From an uncultured bacterium (GTDB lineage: Bacteria > Verrucomicrobiota > Verrucomicrobiia > Verrucomicrobiales > DEV007), in contig CAXBMO010000024.1 of the NCBI GenBank assembly GCA_963977015.1, positions 31,551-95,550 on the forward strand: a stretch of DNA of 64,000 nt. Reading direction: 5' to 3'. Both the position numbers and the translations under genes were made by a program. The stretch's first letter is position 1. Each line of letters starts with the position of its first letter. The notes beneath the pieces are model-generated. The model was not told the origin of the DNA, did not search any database, and saw only the letters and a list, made by a program, of their open reading frames with translations. Positions 10,514-20,816 of this stretch are shown one piece after another.

Positions 10514-13500
10514 CTAACCAAGCAACCGAGCGAGCGATTGATGGGCTGAATCAACCCATCCTTGGTCCGGGAGAGCGTAGGGACGGAAGGTTTCAAGGTA
10601 TCCTTCCTGTTCATTGTAGAACAACGCCCGGTTCAATCCCAGATTGCTGGCCTTGGGCGAATCAATGAGGCTGGATGAGTCGTTTGCGCTCATTTGGAAC
10701 AGCACCCGCATTTCAAACTCACTCAACGCCTTGCGGCTCATCCCGCGACTGATGTTGTTGAAGTTGTCGAACATCGCAATGGTGTGGATGCCCACAGCGG
10801 GACCTTCAGTGATCAAATCATTCAACTGAGCTCCGGGCGCAGGAGCGGATTCGGCATCGAGCGAGAAACTGAAGTCTTCCTCATAACGCAGCTTCTTGAA
10901 CTTCTGAAGCCCCTGGATGATGACGAACGTCGTTGGCGCCTCGGCGGCGGCGGCCTCGTCTTCGGTCCGTGCCTTCATGTCGGACGCCAAATCGGCCATC
11001 ACCGGCTCAACATCGGAGTTCTGAGCCAATTGAACGTGGTGCTGGAGTCCGGCGCAAACCCGGTGAAGGAAGGCGCGCTCGGGCGTTTCCGGCGCGGTGC
11101 CGTCAAAAACCACGAACTTGAGTTTTCCGGCCGCAAACTGCGCGCTGAGGGAAACGAGCGAAACCGCCAGAATCGCGAGGGCCGACTCATCCCGCTGACC
11201 AACGACGAGCAAATTGTTCCCGCTCTGACGCTGAAACGCGGCTTCCGTTGGGCCCTTGATGGAATTGGGCGCTCCCAGGTAGGCGCGGACGACGCCACTG
11301 GTTGGCGCGATGGATTCCGCGCCGAGCATTTGCTCCAACGCCGAATTCTCGCGAACGTTGCCCGGCGCGTTGCCCTCGAAAACGACCGGACCGGCATATT
11401 TTTTGCCCGAATCGTCGGCGAGTTGGCGAACCTTGGTCAAATAACGCTCGCGGGTACCGTCGTTGAGCCAAACGACCTGAAACGGATTGTTTCCTTCCAC
11501 GGCCCCGGCGTTGTCGTTGTAAATTCCCTCTCCGGGACGCGAAAGCAGACGCGCCGCCGGGTTGTTGTCGTCCATGATGAGGTAGGAATCCGCCTCATTA
11601 CACTGCAGCGCGATCCGGATGACCATTTGTCCCAGGGTGGAGCGCGCCAAGGTGAACGCACCGCCCAACGTCTGCGACCCAAGGATCACATGAATCCCGA
11701 AGGCTCGACCTTGACGAACAATCCGGTCCAAGAGCAGGGCTGCGTTTTGCGAAACGCGATCGTCCTCCACAAAATATTCCTGAAACTCATCAATGAGGAG
11801 GAGACTCCGCGGCATTTTTTCCGTTCCGCCCGCGGCTTTGTAGCCGGGAATGTCCTGAACGCCAAGCTGGCGGAAGAGATCACCGCGACGCTTCAATTCA
11901 TCATCGACCCGCTGCAACACGCTGAGTCCGAATTCCCGATCACTCTCGATCGCGATGACCTTGGCGTGCGGAAGCCGATGCGTGGCGTAGGCCTTGAATT
12001 CGACCCCTTTTTTGAAATCGATCAGGTAAAACTCGACCTCATCCGGACTGAACCAAGACGCCAGGTTGGTGATCATGACGTGAAACAACGTCGATTTGCC
12101 GGAACCGGTCTTCCCTGCAACCAACGCGTGCTGCTGGGTTCCCTTCCCGATCGCCAGTTGCTGCAATTTCGTCGCTCCCGTCCTCCCGATCGGCACTTTC
12201 AACTCCTTGGTCGTATCCAGACTCCAGAACTGCTCATCGGTCGGGGCGATGGTTTCGAACGGCACTTCCACGCGCGTTGAGTCGACGCTGGCCTGACCAA
12301 CTTTGTGGATGAAATTGATCGCGTAATCCGGATCTGGCGCCGCCTCCGGGACAATTGAAGCTCCGCGGATCGCATCGTCCGTGAAGATGACGCTGTCGGT
12401 TTTGCAGGTGAGACAGGCCGCAGTGTTGCGAAGGTCCTGCGGCTTAAAACCGGAAGGAGCCGGGCTGCGCGTGTCCCAGTGAATCAGGGCATAAACACCA
12501 CACCGCGCTCCGCTTTGCACGATGCTCATGAGGCGTTTCACCGCCATATCGCTGAATCCGTTCGGGAAATCCGCGACCACCAGGTAGTGGTATTTTTCGG
12601 CAATATTCCCGGCCGCCTCGTTGTATTCCGTGATCGTGCTGTAGTCGTTTCGCAGATACATCTGGATCACCTTCTCCATGTGCTCGTTCAGCTCACCGAG
12701 GCGTTTGTCGATGTGCTCGGATTGCGTCCAAATCCGGCTGTTGATCAAGCTTTCCTCGTAATCCGCCATGTGCATGATCCCGGCGAAATTTTCGCCCAAA
12801 CTCACGGGATCCAGAATCGTGAAACTCAGCCGCCCGGGCGGAGTCAGCGACATGAGCCGCAAAATCACATTGTTCAGCGTGCTGATCCCGACCTCACGAC
12901 CAACGTTGCCGCTTTCCACCAAAACGCTGCCTTGGTCGGGGATTTTGAGGGTCAGCGGAATCGACAACTCAGCCGGTCCCGGAAGCGCCAATTTCGGACT
13001 TTCCGGAAGCTCTCCGGCCAATTCCGCGACATCGACATTCACGGTCCCAAGATTGGCGACGTTGTGGAATTCGGTCGGGCTTTGCCAATTCTCAATAAAT
13101 TCCTGAGTCCACGGCGGAAACAGCTCGGAACTGGCCGCATTCGCAGCGCCCACGGCCTGGTAAATGCCGGTCATCTCCGCGTTCCATTCCGCGATCAAAT
13201 TCTCCCAATTCGTTTCGTAGTTGGAGCCAACTTCGCTCAAGCCGCCCTGCATCGACTGAATCAAGGTCTGCTTGGTCGACTCCGCCTGAGATTTGAGCGA
13301 AGCGAGCTGATTCTCCAAACTGCTGTTCAACTCAGCCAGCTTTCGTTCGCGAATGCTGTCGAATTTGCCCATCACCCGAACATTCTGATCCTCGATCTTT
13401 TTCGGGTAGGTCGCCTTCATGGCTTCGGCTTCCTGGAGAGCAACATTGTAGTTTCGCTTCAGCTCGGCGATTCGATCGGTGTGCGCGCCTTCAATCAACG

Positions 13501-14422
13501 CGACCTGCTGCTGATAATGCGCGTCGGAATCCAGGGAACAGGCATCGACCAATTGCCGCGACCGACCCATCGCTTTGGCGATTTTCGCGGCGGCCCCGGT
13601 CGCGTTCTTCTTTCCGGCAAAATAGAAAAAGCAGGTCAGGATCAGAAGCCACAATGCCGAAACGCCGACGGCCCCGACATACAGCATCTCGACTTCGTTG
13701 TAGAGCAGGAGCCCCGCAACCGCGCCGTGAACCAGGAGAATCAGGATGATCAGCAACGAAACCGGCAAGGCGCCGAAAAAGCGCGGCATCACGTATTTCT
13801 TGAAGTCGTTCAACTCCGCCGCGGCCGTGTTCATTTCTCCGCGATAGACATCCATCATCGCCTCCACATCCTCTGAGATCTCAGCCACCGGCACCTTCCG
13901 TTCCTTCGCCATCATGCGACGAAATGCGCTGTAACCGCGCGTTGCCCGCTTCGCGGCCTTCTCCATCCGCACCAGATCCTTATGATCGTCGCCCACGATG
14001 GTTCGCAGTGCTTCGACCCGCTCCCAGGCCTTGCCGAAGGCCGCGTCCCTCTCGCGATCCGCCATCATGCGGTTCTTCTGCATCTCGTAGGTCCCCTGCC
14101 CTTCGCGCGCCGCGATCACTTCGCGAACGCGTTGGCGGCTGTTCATGTAAGCCTGGTTGATCCGCGCTTTTCGCTGCTCGAACCGTTGCTCCACTTGAAC
14201 CACCTTGTTGGCATGCAGCTCCTCGACCTGCTGCAACTGCTTCTCAAGCTTCTTGTCCTCAACCTCCAGCGCCTCCTCAGTTTCCGTCTCAAGGCGGGAA
14301 GTATTCACCCGGGAACCAGACTCGACACGAGATTCGCGTTTCGCGAAATCGGCGACGCTGGTTTTGAGGCGATCGATGAGTTCGCGCGTCTGGCGAACTG
14401 TCAAAAAGTCGTCGTTATTCAC
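10514..14422 (-). CDS. Membrane-anchored FtsK/SpoIIIE-family ATPase (EccC/EssC-like)
   Basis: N-terminal coiled coil, TM hairpin, second coiled coil, and an intact FtsK domain (HALVAGKTGSGKST, LIDFK, LLLIDEFQ, GRAFGIHVILGSQ) flanked by two degenerate repeats. Confidence 0.88.
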   Translation of the reverse strand: MNNDDFLTVRQTRELIDRLKTSVADFAKRESRVESGSRVNTSRLETETEEALEVEDKKLEKQLQQVEELHANKVVQVEQRFEQRKARINQAYMNSRQRVREVIAAREGQGTYEMQKNRMMADRERDAAFGKAWERVEALRTIVGDDHKDLVRMEKAAKRATRGYSAFRRMMAKERKVPVAEISEDVEAMMDVYRGEMNTAAAELNDFKKYVMPRFFGALPVSLLIILILLVHGAVAGLLLYNEVEMLYVGAVGVSALWLLILTCFFYFAGKKNATGAAAKIAKAMGRSRQLVDACSLDSDAHYQQQVALIEGAHTDRIAELKRNYNVALQEAEAMKATYPKKIEDQNVRVMGKFDSIRERKLAELNSSLENQLASLKSQAESTKQTLIQSMQGGLSEVGSNYETNWENLIAEWNAEMTGIYQAVGAANAASSELFPPWTQEFIENWQSPTEFHNVANLGTVNVDVAELAGELPESPKLALPGPAELSIPLTLKIPDQGSVLVESGNVGREVGISTLNNVILRLMSLTPPGRLSFTILDPVSLGENFAGIMHMADYEESLINSRIWTQSEHIDKRLGELNEHMEKVIQMYLRNDYSTITEYNEAAGNIAEKYHYLVVADFPNGFSDMAVKRLMSIVQSGARCGVYALIHWDTRSPAPSGFKPQDLRNTAACLTCKTDSVIFTDDAIRGASIVPEAAPDPDYAINFIHKVGQASVDSTRVEVPFETIAPTDEQFWSLDTTKELKVPIGRTGATKLQQLAIGKGTQQHALVAGKTGSGKSTLFHVMITNLASWFSPDEVEFYLIDFKKGVEFKAYATHRLPHAKVIAIESDREFGLSVLQRVDDELKRRGDLFRQLGVQDIPGYKAAGGTEKMPRSLLLIDEFQEYFVEDDRVSQNAALLLDRIVRQGRAFGIHVILGSQTLGGAFTLARSTLGQMVIRIALQCNEADSYLIMDDNNPAARLLSRPGEGIYNDNAGAVEGNNPFQVVWLNDGTRERYLTKVRQLADDSGKKYAGPVVFEGNAPGNVRENSALEQMLGAESIAPTSGVVRAYLGAPNSIKGPTEAAFQRQSGNNLLVVGQRDESALAILAVSLVSLSAQFAAGKLKFVVFDGTAPETPERAFLHRVCAGLQHHVQLAQNSDVEPVMADLASDMKARTEDEAAAAEAPTTFVIIQGLQKFKKLRYEEDFSFSLDAESAPAPGAQLNDLITEGPAVGIHTIAMFDNFNNISRGMSRKALSEFEMRVLFQMSANDSSSLIDSPKASNLGLNRALFYNEQEGYLETFRPYALPDQGWVDSAHQSLARLLG

Positions 14423-14627
14423 AGTCTTTCCGGACCTTGGCTACAATTTTGTCAAGCTTATCGATGACAGTGACGGCCGTGTCCACATTTTCAAACAACC
14501 CACTGAGATAACGCGCCTCAAATTCAAGCGCTTTTTGGTCGCGCCAGTAAGCCCTGGTCGCCTCCCACTTGCGAGAGAGCTCCTTGGTCGATCCGGCCAA
14601 CCTCGCTTTACTGGCATTCATATTCAT
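14415..14627 (-). CDS. Small helical WXG100-like protein (70 aa)
   Basis: Helix-turn-helix pattern with central YWRDQ. Overlaps both neighbouring genes. Confidence 0.72.
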   Translation of the reverse strand: MNMNASKARLAGSTKELSRKWEATRAYWRDQKALEFEARYLSGLFENVDTAVTVIDKLDKIVAKVRKDCE

Positions 14628-15199
14628 TGCTCATCCTCCTTTGTCTCTGGAGCATCCACCTGTGACTCGGCAGCTGCGGCATCCTCTGAGGTTGCCAGAG
14701 TCGTCGTCGTATCACCGGCCGACGTCCGCGCCGTGCCCGCATATTCATCCAGGCTCTTGACCGCCTGCGCCAGATACGCGACCGCCTTCGGCAAATCGTT
14801 GCCCACCATGTTGCGCAACCGCTCCAGATTCCGCGCCATTGGCTCCACCTGGCTGTCGAACGAGCGAATCCAACTCTGCGTCGCCCGCAGCTTCGTTTCC
14901 GCCTCGCGCAACGCCTCCTCGCAACGCTCCACCTGACGCTTTTGCAAGGTCGTCGAATCCATCATGCTGGACAACTCGGCGCTGAACAGCTCCTGCTGTG
15001 CATCGTTCAACTTCCGCGTTCGACGCCGGATCTCCGTTTTCCAATGCGGAATCTGGTTGTTCAGCAACCAAACCCGAAGCCGCGTCACCTCATCGCTCAC
15101 CTCGGCAAGCGACATCCCCGCCTTTTCCATGTAGGTGATGAGCGAGGCTCGAAAGTCCTCCAACGCATCAACCCGGGAGATGTTCGCCTTGTCTGCCAT
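14624..15199 (-). CDS. Coiled-coil protein, 191 aa, in the WXG100/FtsK operon
   Basis: Predicted all-helical heptad pattern with an acidic low-complexity tail. ATGA overlap with the downstream gene. Confidence 0.75.
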   Translation of the reverse strand: MADKANISRVDALEDFRASLITYMEKAGMSLAEVSDEVTRLRVWLLNNQIPHWKTEIRRRTRKLNDAQQELFSAELSSMMDSTTLQKRQVERCEEALREAETKLRATQSWIRSFDSQVEPMARNLERLRNMVGNDLPKAVAYLAQAVKSLDEYAGTARTSAGDTTTTLATSEDAAAAESQVDAPETKEDEQ

Positions 15200-15207
15200 C
15201 GTCCCGT

Positions 15208-15480
15208 CTAACGTTGGCTCAGGTAATCCTCAATCCGCTGGGCCTTCCGAAGCAGGAGCGGCGCATGCCGGTTCGACGCTTCGAGAAATTTCTTCAGCGC
15301 CTTGCTCGTATCCTGAAACTCCTCGGCAAATTGCTGGTGCTCCTGATCCTGCCAAGTATCACCCAGCGCCGAAAACCGCGCCTGCAGCGAACTCATCCGG
15401 TTTTGGAGATCTCCGTTAAACCGCTTCAATTCTTCAGCGAAACGCCGAACTTCTTCTGGATCAATAATTGCCTGGGCCAT
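15208..15480 (-). CDS. WXG100-family (EsxA-like) protein, 90 aa
   Basis: IDPEEVRRFAEEL N-terminus, central LGDTWQDQ turn, about 90 aa two-helix pattern. Confidence 0.85.
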   Translation of the reverse strand: MAQAIIDPEEVRRFAEELKRFNGDLQNRMSSLQARFSALGDTWQDQEHQQFAEEFQDTSKALKKFLEASNRHAPLLLRKAQRIEDYLSQR

Positions 15481-15553: not shown

Positions 15554-16729
15554 TTAGCTCGGCACGCCTGGAGCCTCAACAGGCGATTCAGCCTCCTCAG
15601 GTTCCTCCACTTCCCGAATCTTGACTTCCATGCCCTCGATGACGGCTTCGATGGGGGTGAGGCAGATTCGTTCGCCCTGATCGAGACCGGCGGTGACGAT
15701 GGCTTCGTCGCCCTGACGCCGGAGAACGTTGACGGTGCGGAACTTGAGCCGGTTGTCCGGACCGACGAGGACGAGGCGGTCTTCGCCGTAGAAGGCTTTG
15801 AGGGGGACGCGGACGGCGTCGCGAATCGTGCGGCCTTCCACCGCCGCCTGGACGAAGAGGCCGGGTTGCATGATGGCGATGTCGCTGGGGCGCGGGCTGA
15901 CTTCGGCCACGAGGTAAACGGAGCGACTGGCCCGATCGATGACGCCTTCCTGCCTAACGACGTTGCCATTCCATTCGAAGGTTTGGCCGCCAGCTTGGGT
16001 TTTGAGCACCGCCTTGGGGTTGTCGCCCACGAGGGCAAATTCATCGAGGGAAAGCGGGAGACGGATCTCGAACGGGGCGACGGCGTAGACGTTGGCGACG
16101 GGGGCGCCCGGGGTGAGGAAGGAACCCAGTTCGACACTGATTTTCTCCAAACGGCTGTCGTAATCCGCTTTGATCTCGGTTCGCACCAAATCGCGCTGGG
16201 CTTTCTCCACATTCGCCTTCGCAGCTTCGATGCGGGCCTTGGCACTGGCGATTTGAGGTTTGCGCAGGGTCAGATCGGTCGGCTTTCCTCCGCGCCCAAG
16301 CCGCTGCCAGTCGCGATATGCTTTTTCAGCCTGGGCCTCTTCCGTTGCGAGCATCAATTCGGCCTCGGCTTTGGTGGCTTTGGCCTGGGCGAGGGCGGAT
16401 TCGTAGTCAGCCTTTTCCAGCCGAATCATGGGCTCGCCCTTGGTGAATTGACCACCGGCCTCAAATTTCTCTGAAACCCAGACGACTTTGCCGGCGACTT
16501 CGGCGGCAAGTTGCGTTTCGCGCGCAGGCTCGACCATGCCCTGGGAGGGAAGCTCCAATTTCAGCGTCTCTTTCTCGACGCTGGCGACTTCGACAACCGG
16601 AAGCGCCCGAACAGTCGGCGCCTTCTCAGCCTCCGGCTTCAGCTTCAGGAGAACCACCGCCGCTGCCACTCCGGCGCCTAAAACGATCAAGCACAGAACT
16701 AGCTGAGTCAGCTTCAGGGAGAGTTTCAC
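15554..16729 (-). CDS. RND-type periplasmic adaptor (membrane fusion protein)
   Basis: N-terminal TM anchor, AAEVAGKV lipoyl half-motif, helical hairpin, RTEIKA, PGLFVQA, GLDQGERI. Confidence 0.9.
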   Translation of the reverse strand: MKLSLKLTQLVLCLIVLGAGVAAAVVLLKLKPEAEKAPTVRALPVVEVASVEKETLKLELPSQGMVEPARETQLAAEVAGKVVWVSEKFEAGGQFTKGEPMIRLEKADYESALAQAKATKAEAELMLATEEAQAEKAYRDWQRLGRGGKPTDLTLRKPQIASAKARIEAAKANVEKAQRDLVRTEIKADYDSRLEKISVELGSFLTPGAPVANVYAVAPFEIRLPLSLDEFALVGDNPKAVLKTQAGGQTFEWNGNVVRQEGVIDRASRSVYLVAEVSPRPSDIAIMQPGLFVQAAVEGRTIRDAVRVPLKAFYGEDRLVLVGPDNRLKFRTVNVLRRQGDEAIVTAGLDQGERICLTPIEAVIEGMEVKIREVEEPEEAESPVEAPGVPS

Positions 16730-18251
16730 GTTTCTTGTTTACGATTTCAGATGGTTCATGGCTGCGAAAATCGCCGCCGAGAGCGACATGCAGATCAACT
16801 CGATTGTCTAGACGTTGTCGACGGGCATCGATTAACGCGGATTCAGAATTGATCAACTGTTGTTGCGCACGGAGAAGCGTTAACACATCGCCGACGCCTC
16901 CGACATAGTCGTCCCGGGCGCGATCCAGCGCGTCGCGGCCCAGAGCGACGGCCTTTTGCAAGGCGGCAACGCGTTTGGCCTGGTATGAGTCGGCGGCCAA
17001 TGCTTCCTCGACTTCGCGAAAGGCAGTCAATGCGGTTTGCTCAAAGTTTGCCAATGCGGCTTCGGCCTCGGCTTCGCGGAGTTGCACGGTTGCGCGGAGG
17101 CGTTTTCCGTCGAGCAACGGCTGGGCGGCGCGACCGGCAATGCTCCAGACGGTGAAGTCGGTGTCGAAAATGTCGCTCAGGTCTTCGGTCGACGTTCCGT
17201 AGGCTCCGGTGAGCGTCACCGCCGGAAGGAGGCTGCGTTTGGCCTGAACGATGCGCTCGTCGCTGGCGGAGAGGCGGCGCTCAGCGGCGACGAGGTCGGG
17301 ACGACGCTCCAGAAGTTCGGCGGGAATTCCAGCCGGAGGCGCGCCGGGCATGCTCGGCAGACGCGAGGCCGACCGCAATTCACTGGAGGGATAACGCCCC
17401 AAAATGACTTCCAGCAATTTGTTGGAGCGCATGAGTTCCTCCTGGCGCTGGTAGACGGCTGCGCGGGAGTTTTCGACGTCGGCCAGCGCGAGTTGCAGCT
17501 CTCCGGCCGCATTTTCGCCCAACCCTTTCTCAAATTCCGTCCGAATGATCTCCTGGGTTTGGTTGAAGATCTGCAGGGCCCGCTCCGAAAGTTCGGTTTG
17601 CTCCTTGGCGGCGATCAACGCGAACCAGCCCTTGGCGGTTTGCGACGCAATCGAAAGTTGAGCGGCGCGAAAATCGGCTTCCGAAGCCTGGAGCTCCGCC
17701 AACGACGCGGATTTTGCCGCCGCGACCCGTCCCCAGAGATCCAATTCCCAGGTCAGGTTGAGATCGAGACCAAAGCTATTGCTCAACGTTGTCTGGACCG
17801 TTTCGACAGGCGCGGCACCATCCGTCGTGGTTCCTGACGTTCCCCGCGGAAAACCGATGAAGTTTCGCTGCGTGCGAACGCCATCGAACTCTCCGCTCAC
17901 CTGGGGTTTACGGTCGGCGCCGGCGATGATCACGTTGGAGCGGGCCTGGCGAATGCGGGCGGCAGTGGACTTGAGATCGTAGTTGTTGGCCAGGGCCTCA
18001 TCGACGATCTGCTTCAGCTTGGGATCGCGAAAGGTCGTAACCCACTCGGCGTCAGCCATCGGCTTGTTGGCGGCGCGCTCGGTCCATCCTTCCGGAATTT
18101 TCAGGCCCAGTTTCTCGTAATCGGGCTCAGGTGTGGTGACACACCCAGCCAGGAGCAGAGTGCACAAAAACGCAGCCGGGATCGCTGCGAACAAATGCGC
18201 AGCCCCCTCGTGCTCGCGGCAGGGGCGAGTCGAAGCCTCAGGGTTCTTCAT
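16626..18251 (-). CDS. Outer-membrane efflux lipoprotein (NodT/OprM/TolC family)
   Basis: Lipobox LLLAGC, WELDLWGR, PAELLERRPDL.AAE, AFREVE, LHVALGG. Start taken at ATG 18251. Confidence 0.92.
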   Translation of the reverse strand: MKNPEASTRPCREHEGAAHLFAAIPAAFLCTLLLAGCVTTPEPDYEKLGLKIPEGWTERAANKPMADAEWVTTFRDPKLKQIVDEALANNYDLKSTAARIRQARSNVIIAGADRKPQVSGEFDGVRTQRNFIGFPRGTSGTTTDGAAPVETVQTTLSNSFGLDLNLTWELDLWGRVAAAKSASLAELQASEADFRAAQLSIASQTAKGWFALIAAKEQTELSERALQIFNQTQEIIRTEFEKGLGENAAGELQLALADVENSRAAVYQRQEELMRSNKLLEVILGRYPSSELRSASRLPSMPGAPPAGIPAELLERRPDLVAAERRLSASDERIVQAKRSLLPAVTLTGAYGTSTEDLSDIFDTDFTVWSIAGRAAQPLLDGKRLRATVQLREAEAEAALANFEQTALTAFREVEEALAADSYQAKRVAALQKAVALGRDALDRARDDYVGGVGDVLTLLRAQQQLINSESALIDARRQRLDNRVDLHVALGGDFRSHEPSEIVNKKRETLPEADSASSVLDRFRRRSGSGGGSPEAEAGG

Positions 18252-18396
18252 CGTCTCAAAAAAAGGGAGTCGGGTGTGGTCGGCAAAAAGAGGGGTGAGG
18301 ATATTTCGCACATGTTAGACATTTTACGAGTGTAAAGTGAGGAAGCGCCGTCAAAAACTCCTTGGCGGAGTCCGCAGAATGGTGAATGGCTCTAAC

Positions 18397-19224
18397 ATGG
18401 CCACCACTCTAGCAGGCACGAGATTCGACCTCCGATTTGGAGATTGCATCGCAGGCATGAAAAAGCTGCGAGACGAATCCATCGATCTCGTCGTCACGTC
18501 TCCGCCTTACAATCTCGGGACGAACTATGGCAAATACAAAGACAACAAATCGGTCGAGGAGTATCTGGAATGGTGCAAAACCTGGGCCGGCCAAATTCAG
18601 CGCATTCTCAAACCCGACGGCTCGTTTTTTCTGAACATCGGGGCTTCGCCAGCCAACCCCTTGCTCCCCCATCAGCTCCTTCTGGCGCTGACGCCCGAAC
18701 TCTTTACGCTGCAAAACACATTTCACTGGGTGAAATCCATCACCGTCGAAACTCGAGCGGGCGAGGAAGTGTCTGTGGGTCATTTCAAGCCGATCAATTC
18801 GAAGCGATTCGTGAACGATTGCCACGAATTTGTTTACCACTTCACGCTCGAGGGCAATATCCCGCTCGACCGGCGTGGGATCGGGGTGGAATACGTACAC
18901 AAGAGCAATATTTCGCGCTGGGGCCACACCGGAGGAGAAGACAAACGCTGTCGCGGCAACAACTGGTTTGTGCCCTATGAAACCATCCAAAAGCGCAGCA
19001 AGGAGCGCCCGCATCCGGCAACGTTTCCGGTGAAACTCGCCTCAATGTGCATCGGCATCATGGATCGTGATCCGAGTGCCATCACGATGCTGGATCCCTT
19101 TCTCGGGATTGGCCACGCCGCGATTGCCGCTGAAAACGAAGGCGTTGACCGGTTTATCGGCTTCGAAATTGATAAGAAGTATTTCAAGGAAGCGAAATCC
19201 CGACTCGCCCCGCCCGAAGAATGA
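18397..19224 (+). CDS. Orphan N4-cytosine/N6-adenine DNA methyltransferase (beta-class motif order)
   Basis: Catalytic TSPPY near the N-terminus, HPATFP, and SAM-binding LDPFLGIG near the C-terminus. Confidence 0.9.
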   Translation: MATTLAGTRFDLRFGDCIAGMKKLRDESIDLVVTSPPYNLGTNYGKYKDNKSVEEYLEWCKTWAGQIQRILKPDGSFFLNIGASPANPLLPHQLLLALTPELFTLQNTFHWVKSITVETRAGEEVSVGHFKPINSKRFVNDCHEFVYHFTLEGNIPLDRRGIGVEYVHKSNISRWGHTGGEDKRCRGNNWFVPYETIQKRSKERPHPATFPVKLASMCIGIMDRDPSAITMLDPFLGIGHAAIAAENEGVDRFIGFEIDKKYFKEAKSRLAPPEE

Positions 19225-20816
19225 AACGTTTCACCAAGGGCGATCTCGACGGGTTTTTCGCACTCGGGTTGGACAACCTGCTGATGCTCATCCTGATGAG
19301 CGGGTTGTGTCTCGGCTTCCCACTCAACTTCGATCCCGACTTATTTTACGGGCGGGTCTTGCCCGGAGCAGCGATTGGCCTGCTGATCGGCAACCTGTTT
19401 TACGCGCGCCAGGCGCTCCGACTCGCCGCTCGCGAAAATCGCAATGACGTCTGCGCCCTCCCCTACGGCATCAATCTGATCACCATTTTCGTCCACGTTT
19501 TCCTGGTGATGTGGCCAGCTCAACAAATCGCAATGAGCCAGGGACTGGAGAAGCCGGAAGCGGATTTGATGGCGTGGAAAGCGGGAATTGTCGCCTGCCT
19601 TGGCTCGGGTTTGATCGAGTTTCTGGGCTCGTTCGTGGTCGATCGCATCCGCAGAATCACCCCGCGCGCCGCCCTTCTCGCCGCGCTGGGGGGAATTGGG
19701 CTCGCGTTCATCGGGATGGATTTCGTGTTTCGAGCCTTCACCTATCCGCTCGTTGGATTCACCACGCTCGCGATCACCCTGATCGCTTATTTTGGCAAAG
19801 TCCGCTTCAAGTTCGGGCTGCCCGCCGGGCTCGTAATTGTCGTCATTGGCTGCGCGATTGCCTGGGCGACGGGAGTCGCACCCGTCGGCGAAGCGCGAGC
19901 CGCTGGAATCTGTCTGCCCGTCCCCAGATTTGGCGCGCTGTTTGGATCTTTGGGGAATTTATGGATCTACGCCCCGGTCATTTTGCCGATGGGAATCCTG
20001 AGTTTGGTGATGTCGCTCCAGAATATCGAATCCGCCGAAGCGGCCGGCGATCGCTACGAACCCAAACCCGCCCTTGCCTTCAACGGGATCGGCTCCATTG
20101 GCGCCGCGCTGTTCGGCTGCCCCTTTCCCACCACCATTTACATCGGCCATCCCGGTTGGAAGTCGCTCGGTGCCCGGGCCGGCTACTCTACTCTCAACGC
20201 AGTCGTCCTCTCCCTGATCTGTTTTACCGGCACCCTCAGTTACATTGTCTACGTCGTGCCGCTCGAAGCCGGTATGGCGATTTTGATCTGGATTGGAGTG
20301 GTGATGGCGGCCCATGCCTTCCAAGCCGTCCCCAAGGAACACGCGCCCGCCGTGGTGATGGGATTCGTTCCCGCCCTTGGTGGTTTTGCTGCGCTCATGC
20401 TCAAAGCCGGGCTCGGTGCCGGCGGTTACGGCATGCCCGACAAGCCATTTGATCCCGAAATCGCGACCGTTCTGGCTCAGACTCGAAACGTCTTTGCCGA
20501 GGGAATTTTCGCGCTCGATCAGGGCTTCGTTTACACCAGCATTCTCTTTGCGGCGACGACCGTGGCCATCATCGAACGGAAGTTCCGCATCGCGGCAGCC
20601 TGGTGTCTGGCGGGCGGATTTCTCGCGGCGATCGGGCTCATTCACGCCCATCAATACACACCGGGAGACGTCGTCGGACGACTGTCGGCCGGGTTTGAAC
20701 TCGATGAATCCGGAAACCTGATGGCGGCCCAGGGCTGGAAGTGGACCTGGGGTTACCTGGTGATGGCCGGCGTCTTTTTCGTGGCGCCCTGGGTCACGGA
20801 GAAAAGCGAGAACTAA
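19221..20816 (+). CDS. NCS2/AzgA-like nucleobase permease
   Basis: [41 protein letters not shown]; many TM helices. Confidence 0.82.

Follow-up and report, generated by a model that had tools for sequence, protein, structure and literature searches.

The 64,000-nt stretch of DNA analysed in this study (the window; GenBank assembly GCA_963977015.1, contig CAXBMO010000024.1, positions 31,551 to 95,550 of the forward strand) comes from an uncultured bacterium of the order Verrucomicrobiales (lineage DEV007), whose genome, designated G000, is 95% complete. The window contains on its minus strand a cassette of four genes encoding a WXG100-family protein, two further helical proteins (CC191 and S70), and a large FtsK/SpoIIIE-superfamily ATPase (Table 1). 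A preliminary description of the window had pointed to four tightly coupled minus-strand genes, and indeed the open reading frames (ORFs) of 90, 191, 70, and 1302 amino acids (aa) were found with an 8-nt gap between the WXG and CC191 genes, a 4-nt overlap (ATGA) between the CC191 and S70 genes, and an 8-nt overlap (GTGAATAA) between the S70 and ATPase genes. The locus is a member of the class of solo WXG domains with a distinct three-module ATPase reported by Zhang et al. in 2012 (Biol Direct 7:18, PMC3482391), and represents its four-gene form in Verrucomicrobiota and Planctomycetota.

Table 1 Features of the four-gene cassette (positions of the window) and loci of related ATPase genes that lack the membrane anchor.
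Feature	Position or locus	Strand	Basis
WXG100-family protein, 90 aa	15208..15480	-	ORF; Pfam WXG100
CC191, 191-aa long helical hairpin protein	14624..15199	-	ORF; AlphaFold2 (AF2) model
S70, 70-aa helical hairpin protein	14415..14627	-	ORF; complex prediction
FtsK/SpoIIIE-superfamily ATPase, 1302 aa	10514..14422	-	ORF; Pfam FtsK_SpoIIIE
Transmembrane (TM) hairpin of the ATPase (about aa 210-270), few residues between helices	13613..13795	-	Kyte-Doolittle
First P-loop-like domain (about aa 455-692), degenerate, no GK[ST]	12347..13060	-	AF2 model; family invariants
Middle domain (about aa 741-985), Walker A G770-S777, Walker B I877-Q881	11468..12202	-	Sequence, alignment A4, AF2
Third P-loop-like domain (about aa 1013-1302), degenerate	10517..11386	-	AF2 model
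Prosthecobacter-type TM-less ATPase genes	L027-L034, L036-L040, L043, L046, L049, L063, L068		

By profile comparison, the 90-aa protein is an ESAT-6-like WXG100 hairpin nearest to Helicobacter pylori HP0062. It scored 44.9 bits against Pfam WXG100 and passed the gathering score of 27.3, which bears out the EsxA-like identity given in the preliminary description; against NCBIfam TIGR03930 it scored 33.6 bits, under the cut-off of 44.85. This was the only WXG100 match in the whole of G000. When a profile of 25 family members (alignment A1; the 90-aa protein and 24 relatives) was compared with the PDB, HP0062 ranked first (3fx7, E 2.9e-11; 2gts, E 1.4e-10), followed by Bacillus anthracis EsxB (3e-7) and Staphylococcus aureus EsxA (9e-4), the best solved matches being ESAT-6-like dimers. 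The hairpin turn reads W-Q-D in place of W-x-G, and the C-terminal stretch (L76, R78, K79, A80, I83, Y86, and L87) was invariant in A1. With 57-97% identity to the 24 relatives, the protein is the best conserved product of the four genes; the corresponding values were 46-81% for the ATPase core, 29-74% for S70, and 23-70% for CC191.

The AlphaFold2 model of CC191, built with 26 sequences, had a mean predicted local distance difference test (pLDDT) score of 85.7 and consisted of one long hairpin with helices at residues 8-76 and 80-171, followed by a disordered tail (residues 172-191, pLDDT below 50) that was variable and either acidic or rich in proline and alanine across the relatives (alignment A2). 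No Pfam family was found for CC191, a Foldseek search with the model returned generic coiled-coil hairpins only, none at E 0.001 or better, and an hhalign comparison with the WXG profile gave no match (E 0.18). The LXG domain (PF04740) matched neither CC191 nor any other protein of G000. Relatives in the ESM Atlas belonged to unnamed clusters from Planctomycetota and Verrucomicrobiota. In the cassettes of the Planctomycetes-Verrucomicrobia-Chlamydiae (PVC) group, the protein at this position has 159-195 aa and carries no toxin domain; longer fused forms were not seen among 8000 scored candidates, which is weak evidence.

For S70, the invariant residues are W21, W28-x-D30, F36, and C69, and again no Pfam family was found. 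S70 is probably a shortened WXG100-like protein, as suggested by hints that are weak but repeated: the hhalign comparison with the WXG profile gave E 0.0073 (probability 5%) over the W-x-D turn, two of the 26 S70 family members reached Pfam WXG100 (best E 0.0022), S. aureus EsxA was matched at E 0.31, and further cross-matches appeared in small searches. Subsequently, S70 was examined by complex prediction as the partner of the WXG protein and residues 1-165 of CC191. An ipSAE of 0.80 was obtained in each of three runs (best of three controls, 0.02), a mark that 116 of 157 solved complexes and 2 of 215 mismatched pairs attained in a calibration set, from which this job differed by its custom alignments and three chains. 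The runs agreed in at least 94% of the contacts with a partner pLDDT of at least 89, and the score was abolished when CC191 was replaced. S70 contacted residues 2-49 and 103-146 of CC191, which form the open end of the hairpin, and only residues 86-89 of the WXG protein. S70 is thus predicted to cap the open end of the CC191 hairpin, giving a four-helix bundle, and this predicted cap is new beyond the published description of the class. Taken together, the ESAT-6-like matches of the WXG protein, the hairpin model of CC191, and the predicted placement of S70 on CC191 are in line with the helical-hairpin bundles on which the type VII interpretation in the preliminary description depended.

The ATPase consists of a coiled-coil N-terminus (residues 1-209), a hydrophobic hairpin with Kyte-Doolittle 19-aa means of 2.71 and 2.13, a coiled-coil stalk, and three tandem P-loop domains, which were all recovered in the AlphaFold2 model (pLDDT 83.4). 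Together with the match to Pfam FtsK_SpoIIIE (PF01580; 98.7 bits over residues 761-917), the hydrophobic segments confirm the TM-anchored FtsK/SpoIIIE ATPase of the preliminary description. The Pfam and PDB matches centre on the middle domain. The Walker A and B motifs were found in this domain only and were invariant in all 30 aligned relatives (alignment A4); likewise, exactly one canonical Walker A motif (GxxGxGK[ST]) was present in each of the 147 full-length representatives among the best 150 of a search of 1.84 billion proteins. The middle domain therefore appears to be the sole catalytically competent one of the three. In the third domain, the P-loop position reads V-V-G-Q-R-D, the internal match to the middle domain is weak, and the NCBIfam EccCb alignment extends to residue 1153, inside this domain. 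By analogy with EccC D3 (4n1a), it is likely to be a substrate-docking domain. Two long frames run antisense to the ATPase gene on the plus strand (10694-12280, 528 aa; 12479-13876, 465 aa); these are mechanical ORFs of a G+C-rich gene and no real genes.

Next, the affiliation of the ATPase was considered. A Foldseek search with the three-domain model gave EccC 4nh0 as the best match (E 3e-32, 975 columns), followed by 4n1a and by EssC 4lya and 5fv0, with FtsK (1.8e-15) and TcpA ranking behind EccC and EssC. Sequence searches gave the same order: the NCBIfam scores were 106.6 bits for EccCa, 100.6 for EssC, 88.2 for EccCb, and 32.4 for FtsK, and those against the PDB were 103.8 for EccC, 83.6 for EccC5, 77.7 for YukB, and 39.4 for FtsK. 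However, the NCBIfam equivalog cut-offs were widely missed (TIGR03924, 106.6 vs 509.15; TIGR03928, 100.6 vs 778.4; TIGR03925, 88.2 vs 346.55), as was that of the FtsK equivalog NF007615 (32.4 vs 1566). In a 20-row tree of single domains, the ATPase family formed its own clade (89/89), separate from FtsK (98/96). No Ftsk_gamma was found among the Pfam matches of the ATPase up to E 1, and a separate true FtsK (207.7 bits) is encoded elsewhere in G000. The EccC/EssC-like character assigned in the preliminary description thus stands for the build, as judged from the Foldseek matches and the three domains, and does not stand for orthology, given the missed cut-offs and the separate clade. The best matches of the three-domain model and the separate FtsK of the genome also speak against a grouping with FtsK or with conjugation proteins.

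A scan restricted to a single genome for each species yielded 67 loci, nearly all of them in Verrucomicrobiota, with two in Planctomycetota and one short fragment binned as Bosea. Gene order was counted in the 55 loci that extend at least 1600 nt upstream of the ATPase gene, and the order WXG, long hairpin, 70-aa gene, and ATPase was observed in 51 of them, including L066, whose ATPase ORF is over-extended upstream. Among the exceptions, L013, from a Verrucomicrobial metagenome-assembled genome (MAG), has an interrupted cassette in which the 70-aa gene is separated from the ATPase gene by other genes spanning about 7.5 kb (L013:1-7983), and in L026, L041, and L064 the small genes were not found within the available DNA, even by profile search. 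Since the same four genes stand in the same order in 51 of 55 loci, their linkage is more than chance, and the conservation as a unit that the preliminary description presupposed was confirmed. No further gene family was common to more than 14 of the 66 loci. Within the phylum the cassette is patchy and its genomic place varies even inside one bacterial family: the 191-aa family was detected in 12 of 401 sampled Verrucomicrobiota genomes and in 11 of 185 genera, three of the matches being weak. A three-domain profile found 4189 cluster representatives at E 1e-30 or better, some of which may belong to other FtsK-like families, whereas a search of viral contigs yielded no relative of the ATPase. 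As a separate observation, the Bosea-labelled contig (L058, 4.3 kb) carries a fragment of a Prosthecobacter-type ATPase (63% identity), and its presence in a MAG labelled as alphaproteobacterial is probably a binning error rather than a transfer.

Among the 55 related ATPases with 1100 aa or more, 37 have a TM-like segment, and so do 145 of the 147 full-length cluster representatives. The TM-less members of the former set are one frameshift fragment and 17 proteins of a Prosthecobacter-type clade (Table 1), which have about 1149-1226 aa, mostly 1214-1216, and are hydrophilic where the TM hairpin belongs; in three that were inspected, the top 19-aa hydropathy in the first 420 residues was about 0.8-1.0. 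The TM-less loci retain all four genes and are flanked by unrelated genes only; one of them, L043, belongs to the cultured Prosthecobacter fluviatilis KACC 12649. Membrane anchoring is therefore the rule, yet it is dispensable for retention of the cassette.

Homologues were also present on plasmids. A tblastn search of 72,556 plasmids with the middle domain gave eight records at E 1e-20 or better, with homologues in Caballeronia, Rhodococcus, Helicobacter, and Deinococcus. On Caballeronia pSBC2-5 the order is VWA, WXG100, a 436-aa protein, a 113-aa protein, a 76-aa protein, a 927-aa ATPase, CARF, VWA, PP2C, Ser/Thr kinase, and SF1 helicase, where VWA denotes VWA(TerY). The WXG100 protein matched the A1 profile at E 1e-26 and the ATPase matched residues 516-1283 of the window ATPase at E 2.6e-92, and the hhalign comparisons of the 436-aa protein with the CC191 profile (E 0.14) and of the 76-aa protein with the S70 profile (E 0.058) were not significant; the equivalence of these two proteins to CC191 and S70 is positional only. 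The Rhodococcus plasmid encodes the ATPase, a 314-aa protein, a 73-aa W-R-D protein, and a WXG protein, with adjoining TerD genes. On the plasmid of Deinococcus actinosclerus (L098:6448-9728), a 142-aa coiled-coil protein with a C-terminal hydrophobic helix directly precedes a TM-less 947-aa ATPase, and this arrangement looks like a split anchor and motor; two WXG-like genes and genes for a 326-aa coiled-coil protein and a 144-aa W-N-D protein follow. The 947-aa ATPase lacks the canonical GxxGxGK[ST] motif.

The plasmid of Helicobacter sp. was the most informative one for the position of CC191. Here a WXG protein (A1 profile, E 4.5e-17) comes first and an 823-aa ATPase last, and between them stand, in this order, a 340-aa protein, a SUKH immunity protein (29.1 bits), and a 77-aa protein. 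In the 340-aa protein, a helical N-terminus is combined with WHH (44.6 bits) and colicin-DNase (36.4 bits) domains at the C-terminus; the protein gave no match to the profiles of the three small proteins. The pairing of a toxin with a SUKH immunity gene usually marks polymorphic toxins that are exported. Because the second position of the Helicobacter cassette is taken by a polymorphic toxin with its immunity gene, the CC191 position looks like that of a cargo, and no other comparative argument for a cargo at this position is as good. CC191 may be read, by this analogy, as a toxin-less cargo equivalent in position to the Helicobacter nuclease toxin. Judging from these gene orders, the syntax of the cassette is shared far beyond the PVC group.

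In the window, a gene for an RND-type periplasmic adaptor (15554-16729) lies 73 nt upstream of the WXG gene on the same strand, with a gene for a NodT-type outer-membrane factor (OMF; 16626-18311) next to it on its upstream side, and fusA lies downstream of the cassette with 156-nt spacing. The base composition shows no break across the cassette, and no mobile-element genes flanking this copy were seen in the window. A promoter and terminator scan around the cassette gave counts at the shuffle level, from which no operon boundary could be called. A look-up of sequencing runs returned DNA runs and none of RNA. The NodT-type OMF and a BamB-like protein, both encoded in the window, are consistent with a diderm setting.

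The efflux pair (15554-18311, minus strand; OMF 307 bits, adaptor 161.3 bits) has no pump gene. In four genomes of the same family, a gene for an AcrB-type pump (536-558 bits) comes after the orthologous pair of OMF and adaptor genes. In the genus of the window the pump gene is gone from that place, where G000 and G402 carry the cassette; in G401 of the same genus, the pump-less pair and the cassette are on different contigs, and in G410 and G417 the OMF-adaptor-pump operon is intact and the cassette is at a separate place. Among the 66 other loci, the efflux genes adjoin the cassette in one (L002, same genus). A functional coupling of the OMF and adaptor to the cassette as a conserved feature was considered and rejected on account of this single adjacency and the separate places in relatives. 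Since the pair is followed by the pump and the cassette lies elsewhere in relatives, the adjacency is a recent rearrangement, and the varying places indicate that the cassette is mobile inside a single bacterial family. The efflux genes upstream of it are thus a recent neighbour and no part of the system. Beyond them, on the plus strand (18337-20816), a gene for an N6/N4 DNA methylase (131.2 bits) overlaps the 531-aa ORF that comes next, which has no Pfam or NCBIfam match, and the two possibly form a restriction-modification pair; the methylase gene adjoins the efflux operon in two of the four relatives (L088 and L089).

On balance, we slightly favour the interpretation that the cassette is a minimal, mobile relative of type VII secretion systems (T7SS) in which the ATPase moves helical cargo across the inner membrane. 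The mechanism that we consider most likely, with about an even chance of being correct, is an export of helical proteins by the ATPase, as suggested by its build, the gene syntax, and the relatives that carry toxins. In such a mechanism, the ATPase would form a membrane-anchored ring, as EccC and EssC do, and would recognise the helical bundle; the parts involved would most likely be the invariant C-terminus of the WXG protein and the degenerate last domain of the ATPase. Turnover of ATP by the middle domain would then drive CC191 and its small partners across the inner membrane. A bolder proposal is that the cassette is a complete and self-sufficient translocase, with a single-ATPase ring, its TM hairpins and one active tier of P-loops included, as the whole inner-membrane machine and its own three-protein bundle, the toxin-less counterpart of the nuclease effector encoded at the equivalent place on the Helicobacter plasmid, as the only cargo. 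We give this proposal a minor chance; if it is true, type VII secretion would operate here, in a diderm, in the simplest form that works, and the bundle would act after export in the periplasm or on the outer membrane.

Several observations weigh against export, and most of them also bear on the main rival explanation, namely that no secretion takes place and the cassette is a cytoplasmic or membrane module for conflict or stress, in which the ring would serve to assemble, remodel, or release the helical proteins, for instance so that they perturb the membrane of their own cell or act on invading DNA. In that case, the resemblance to T7SS would reflect shared ancestry only. No outer-membrane route is evident, and other membrane parts of T7SS did not turn up: the searches of G000 with PF05108 (EccB), PF10140 (YukC/EssB), PF08817 (YukD), and LXG gave no match, with the positive controls detected, so that the lack of a recognisable EccB or EssB/YukC nearby, noted in the preliminary description, extends to the whole genome. 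No EccD-, EccE-, MycP-, EssA-, or EsaA-like gene is conserved beside the cassette in the 66 loci, a statement about neighbourhoods, as no genome-wide search for these was made. No homology could be detected between CC191 and the proteins with toxin domains that take its position elsewhere. The cassette is kept with TM-less ATPases in 18 of 55 cases, and the ATPases of the Caballeronia, Helicobacter, and Deinococcus plasmids have no convincing TM segment (that of Rhodococcus is borderline); the TM helices are therefore no universal channel. Furthermore, the proteobacterial and actinobacterial plasmid homologues adjoin TerY, PP2C, and kinase genes, together with CARF and helicase genes in Caballeronia, or TerD genes in Rhodococcus, and comparative work ties the TerY/TerD context to stress and conflict systems rather than to plain secretion. 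The patchy distribution (12 of 401 genomes) and the variable genomic place within a family would also suit a conflict module. Nevertheless, 145 of 147 representatives are membrane-anchored, the Helicobacter cargo position holds a toxin with its SUKH immunity gene, the WXG protein is 57-97% identical among relatives, unlike arms-race sensors, no relative was found in viral contigs, and PADLOC gave only generic P-loop and coiled-coil matches (SspH, mad8, HerA, and ZorA). We consequently regard a conflict or stress role as a serious but minority explanation.

The affiliation of the motor domain bears on the export interpretation as well. The middle domain alone scored about equally against EccC D1 (60.5 bits), Anoxybacillus FtsK (61.8), and a Bacillus plasmid FtsK-like protein (66.8), and in the 20-row tree the placement of the family relative to EccC is undecided, with long branches meeting. 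Together with the missed equivalog cut-offs, these scores and the tree indicate that the likeness to type VII rests on the build and the WXG100 link and not on orthology. They also raise the idea that the ATPase, aided by accessory proteins, is a translocase of DNA or a coupling protein for conjugation akin to FtsK, TraB, or TcpA, for which the Pfam family FtsK_SpoIIIE and the plasmid-borne homologues could be cited. However, FtsK and the cassette family form separate, supported clades, the ATPase has three tandem domains of which two are degenerate, as in EccC, neither the cassette nor its neighbourhood contains an Ftsk_gamma, relaxase, or type IV secretion gene, a separate FtsK is encoded in the genome, and the link to the WXG100 gene is constant, so that a role in DNA translocation is very unlikely. 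A further idea, suggested by the pump-less OMF and adaptor genes directly upstream on the same strand and by the AcrB-type pump at exactly that place in four genomes of the same family, is that the ATPase has replaced the RND pump and uses the adaptor and OMF as a trans-envelope, type I-like duct for a type VII-like cargo. This is scarcely credible in view of the adjacency in one of 66 other loci, the separation of cassette and pair in G401, G410, and G417, the many other RND pumps of the genome (one on the same contig), and the ATPase itself, which presents almost nothing periplasmic for an adaptor to grip.

Both known T7SS types have as their common core a WXG100 protein and an FtsK-like ATPase of several domains, and the cassette could accordingly belong to a canonical T7SSa or T7SSb whose other membrane parts lie elsewhere or are too divergent to be recognised. 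We consider this highly improbable: EccB, YukC/EssB, and YukD had no match in a genome of 95% completeness, the neighbourhoods of the cassette in 66 loci show no other conserved gene, the equivalog cut-offs were missed by far (106.6 vs 509 and 100.6 vs 778), and the ATPase has one apparently active P-loop and no FHA domain.

To our knowledge, an understanding of type VII secretion has been reached in Actinomycetota and Bacillota only, and in these phyla the ATPase is surrounded by several membrane proteins. The class discussed here reduces the system to one ATPase and three small helical proteins, is abundant, and occurs in diderm phyla. If the export interpretation is true, the cassette would define a minimal type VII translocon and the recognition of a helical-bundle cargo; if there is no export, it would reveal another use of the pairing of WXG100 and FtsK. 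Cultured carriers such as Prosthecobacter bring either answer within reach of ordinary genetics. In the literature, we found no experimental study of the Verrucomicrobial or Planctomycete form.

Among the known systems, the T7SSa ATPase EccC (Thermomonospora curvata 4nh0/4n1a, and EccC5) gives the best structure and sequence matches and shares the tandem P-loop domains after two TM helices, whereas the cassette ATPase has flanking domains without P-loops, long coiled coils on either side of the TM hairpin, and a clade of its own. FtsK/SpoIIIE and TcpA/TraB belong to the same P-loop superfamily (PF01580), but they have a single motor domain and fall in a separate clade, in contrast to the three domains of the cassette ATPase. 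With the T7SSb of Bacillota (EssC/YukB and EsxA), the cassette has in common a WXG100 protein, a membrane-bound multi-domain FtsK-like ATPase, and a long helical protein with a predicted small partner; it differs in the one apparently active P-loop, the lack of an FHA domain, and a 191-aa protein without an LXG or toxin domain. The LXG toxins of T7SSb are reported to have small Lap targeting partners (mBio 2022, PMC9600955), and the cassette is similar only in that the small helical S70 is predicted to bind CC191.

The best solved match of the WXG protein, HP0062 of H. pylori (3fx7/2gts), is described as an ESAT-6-like dimer and HP0066 as an FtsK/SpoIIIE protein (PMC3397514, PMC4978471), and the hairpin turn of HP0062 is W-R-D (PMC3397514), compared with W-Q-D in the cassette. 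Uchiyama et al. named HP0062 and HP0066 and linked a paralogous pair to a TerY-P triad island. H. pylori belongs to another phylum, and the related Helicobacter sp. plasmid has a toxin-immunity pair and a TM-less 823-aa ATPase.

The closest counterpart is the class in footnote 6 of Table 1 of Zhang et al. (PMC3482391), in which solo WXG domains accompany a YueA-like ATPase of a distinct type that has three HerA/FtsK domains, the middle one alone being active, in hosts that include verrucomicrobia and planctomycetes; its members are said there to appear to be mobile versions of T7SS. The preliminary description therefore overrated the novelty of the locus, and the window alone is another member of a class already in print. 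The locus shows the features of this class: the WXG100 protein is solo in the genome and lies in the ATPase operon, the AlphaFold2 model has three FtsK-like domains with motifs, and by these motifs presumably activity, in the middle one only, the lineage is verrucomicrobial, the other type VII parts searched for (EccB, YukC/EssB, and YukD) had no match, and mobility is indicated by the occurrence in 12 of 401 genomes, the varied places within a family, and the plasmid homologues. To the content of that footnote, the present analysis adds the two further helical genes, the N-terminal coiled coil and TM hairpin of the ATPase, and its TM-less forms.

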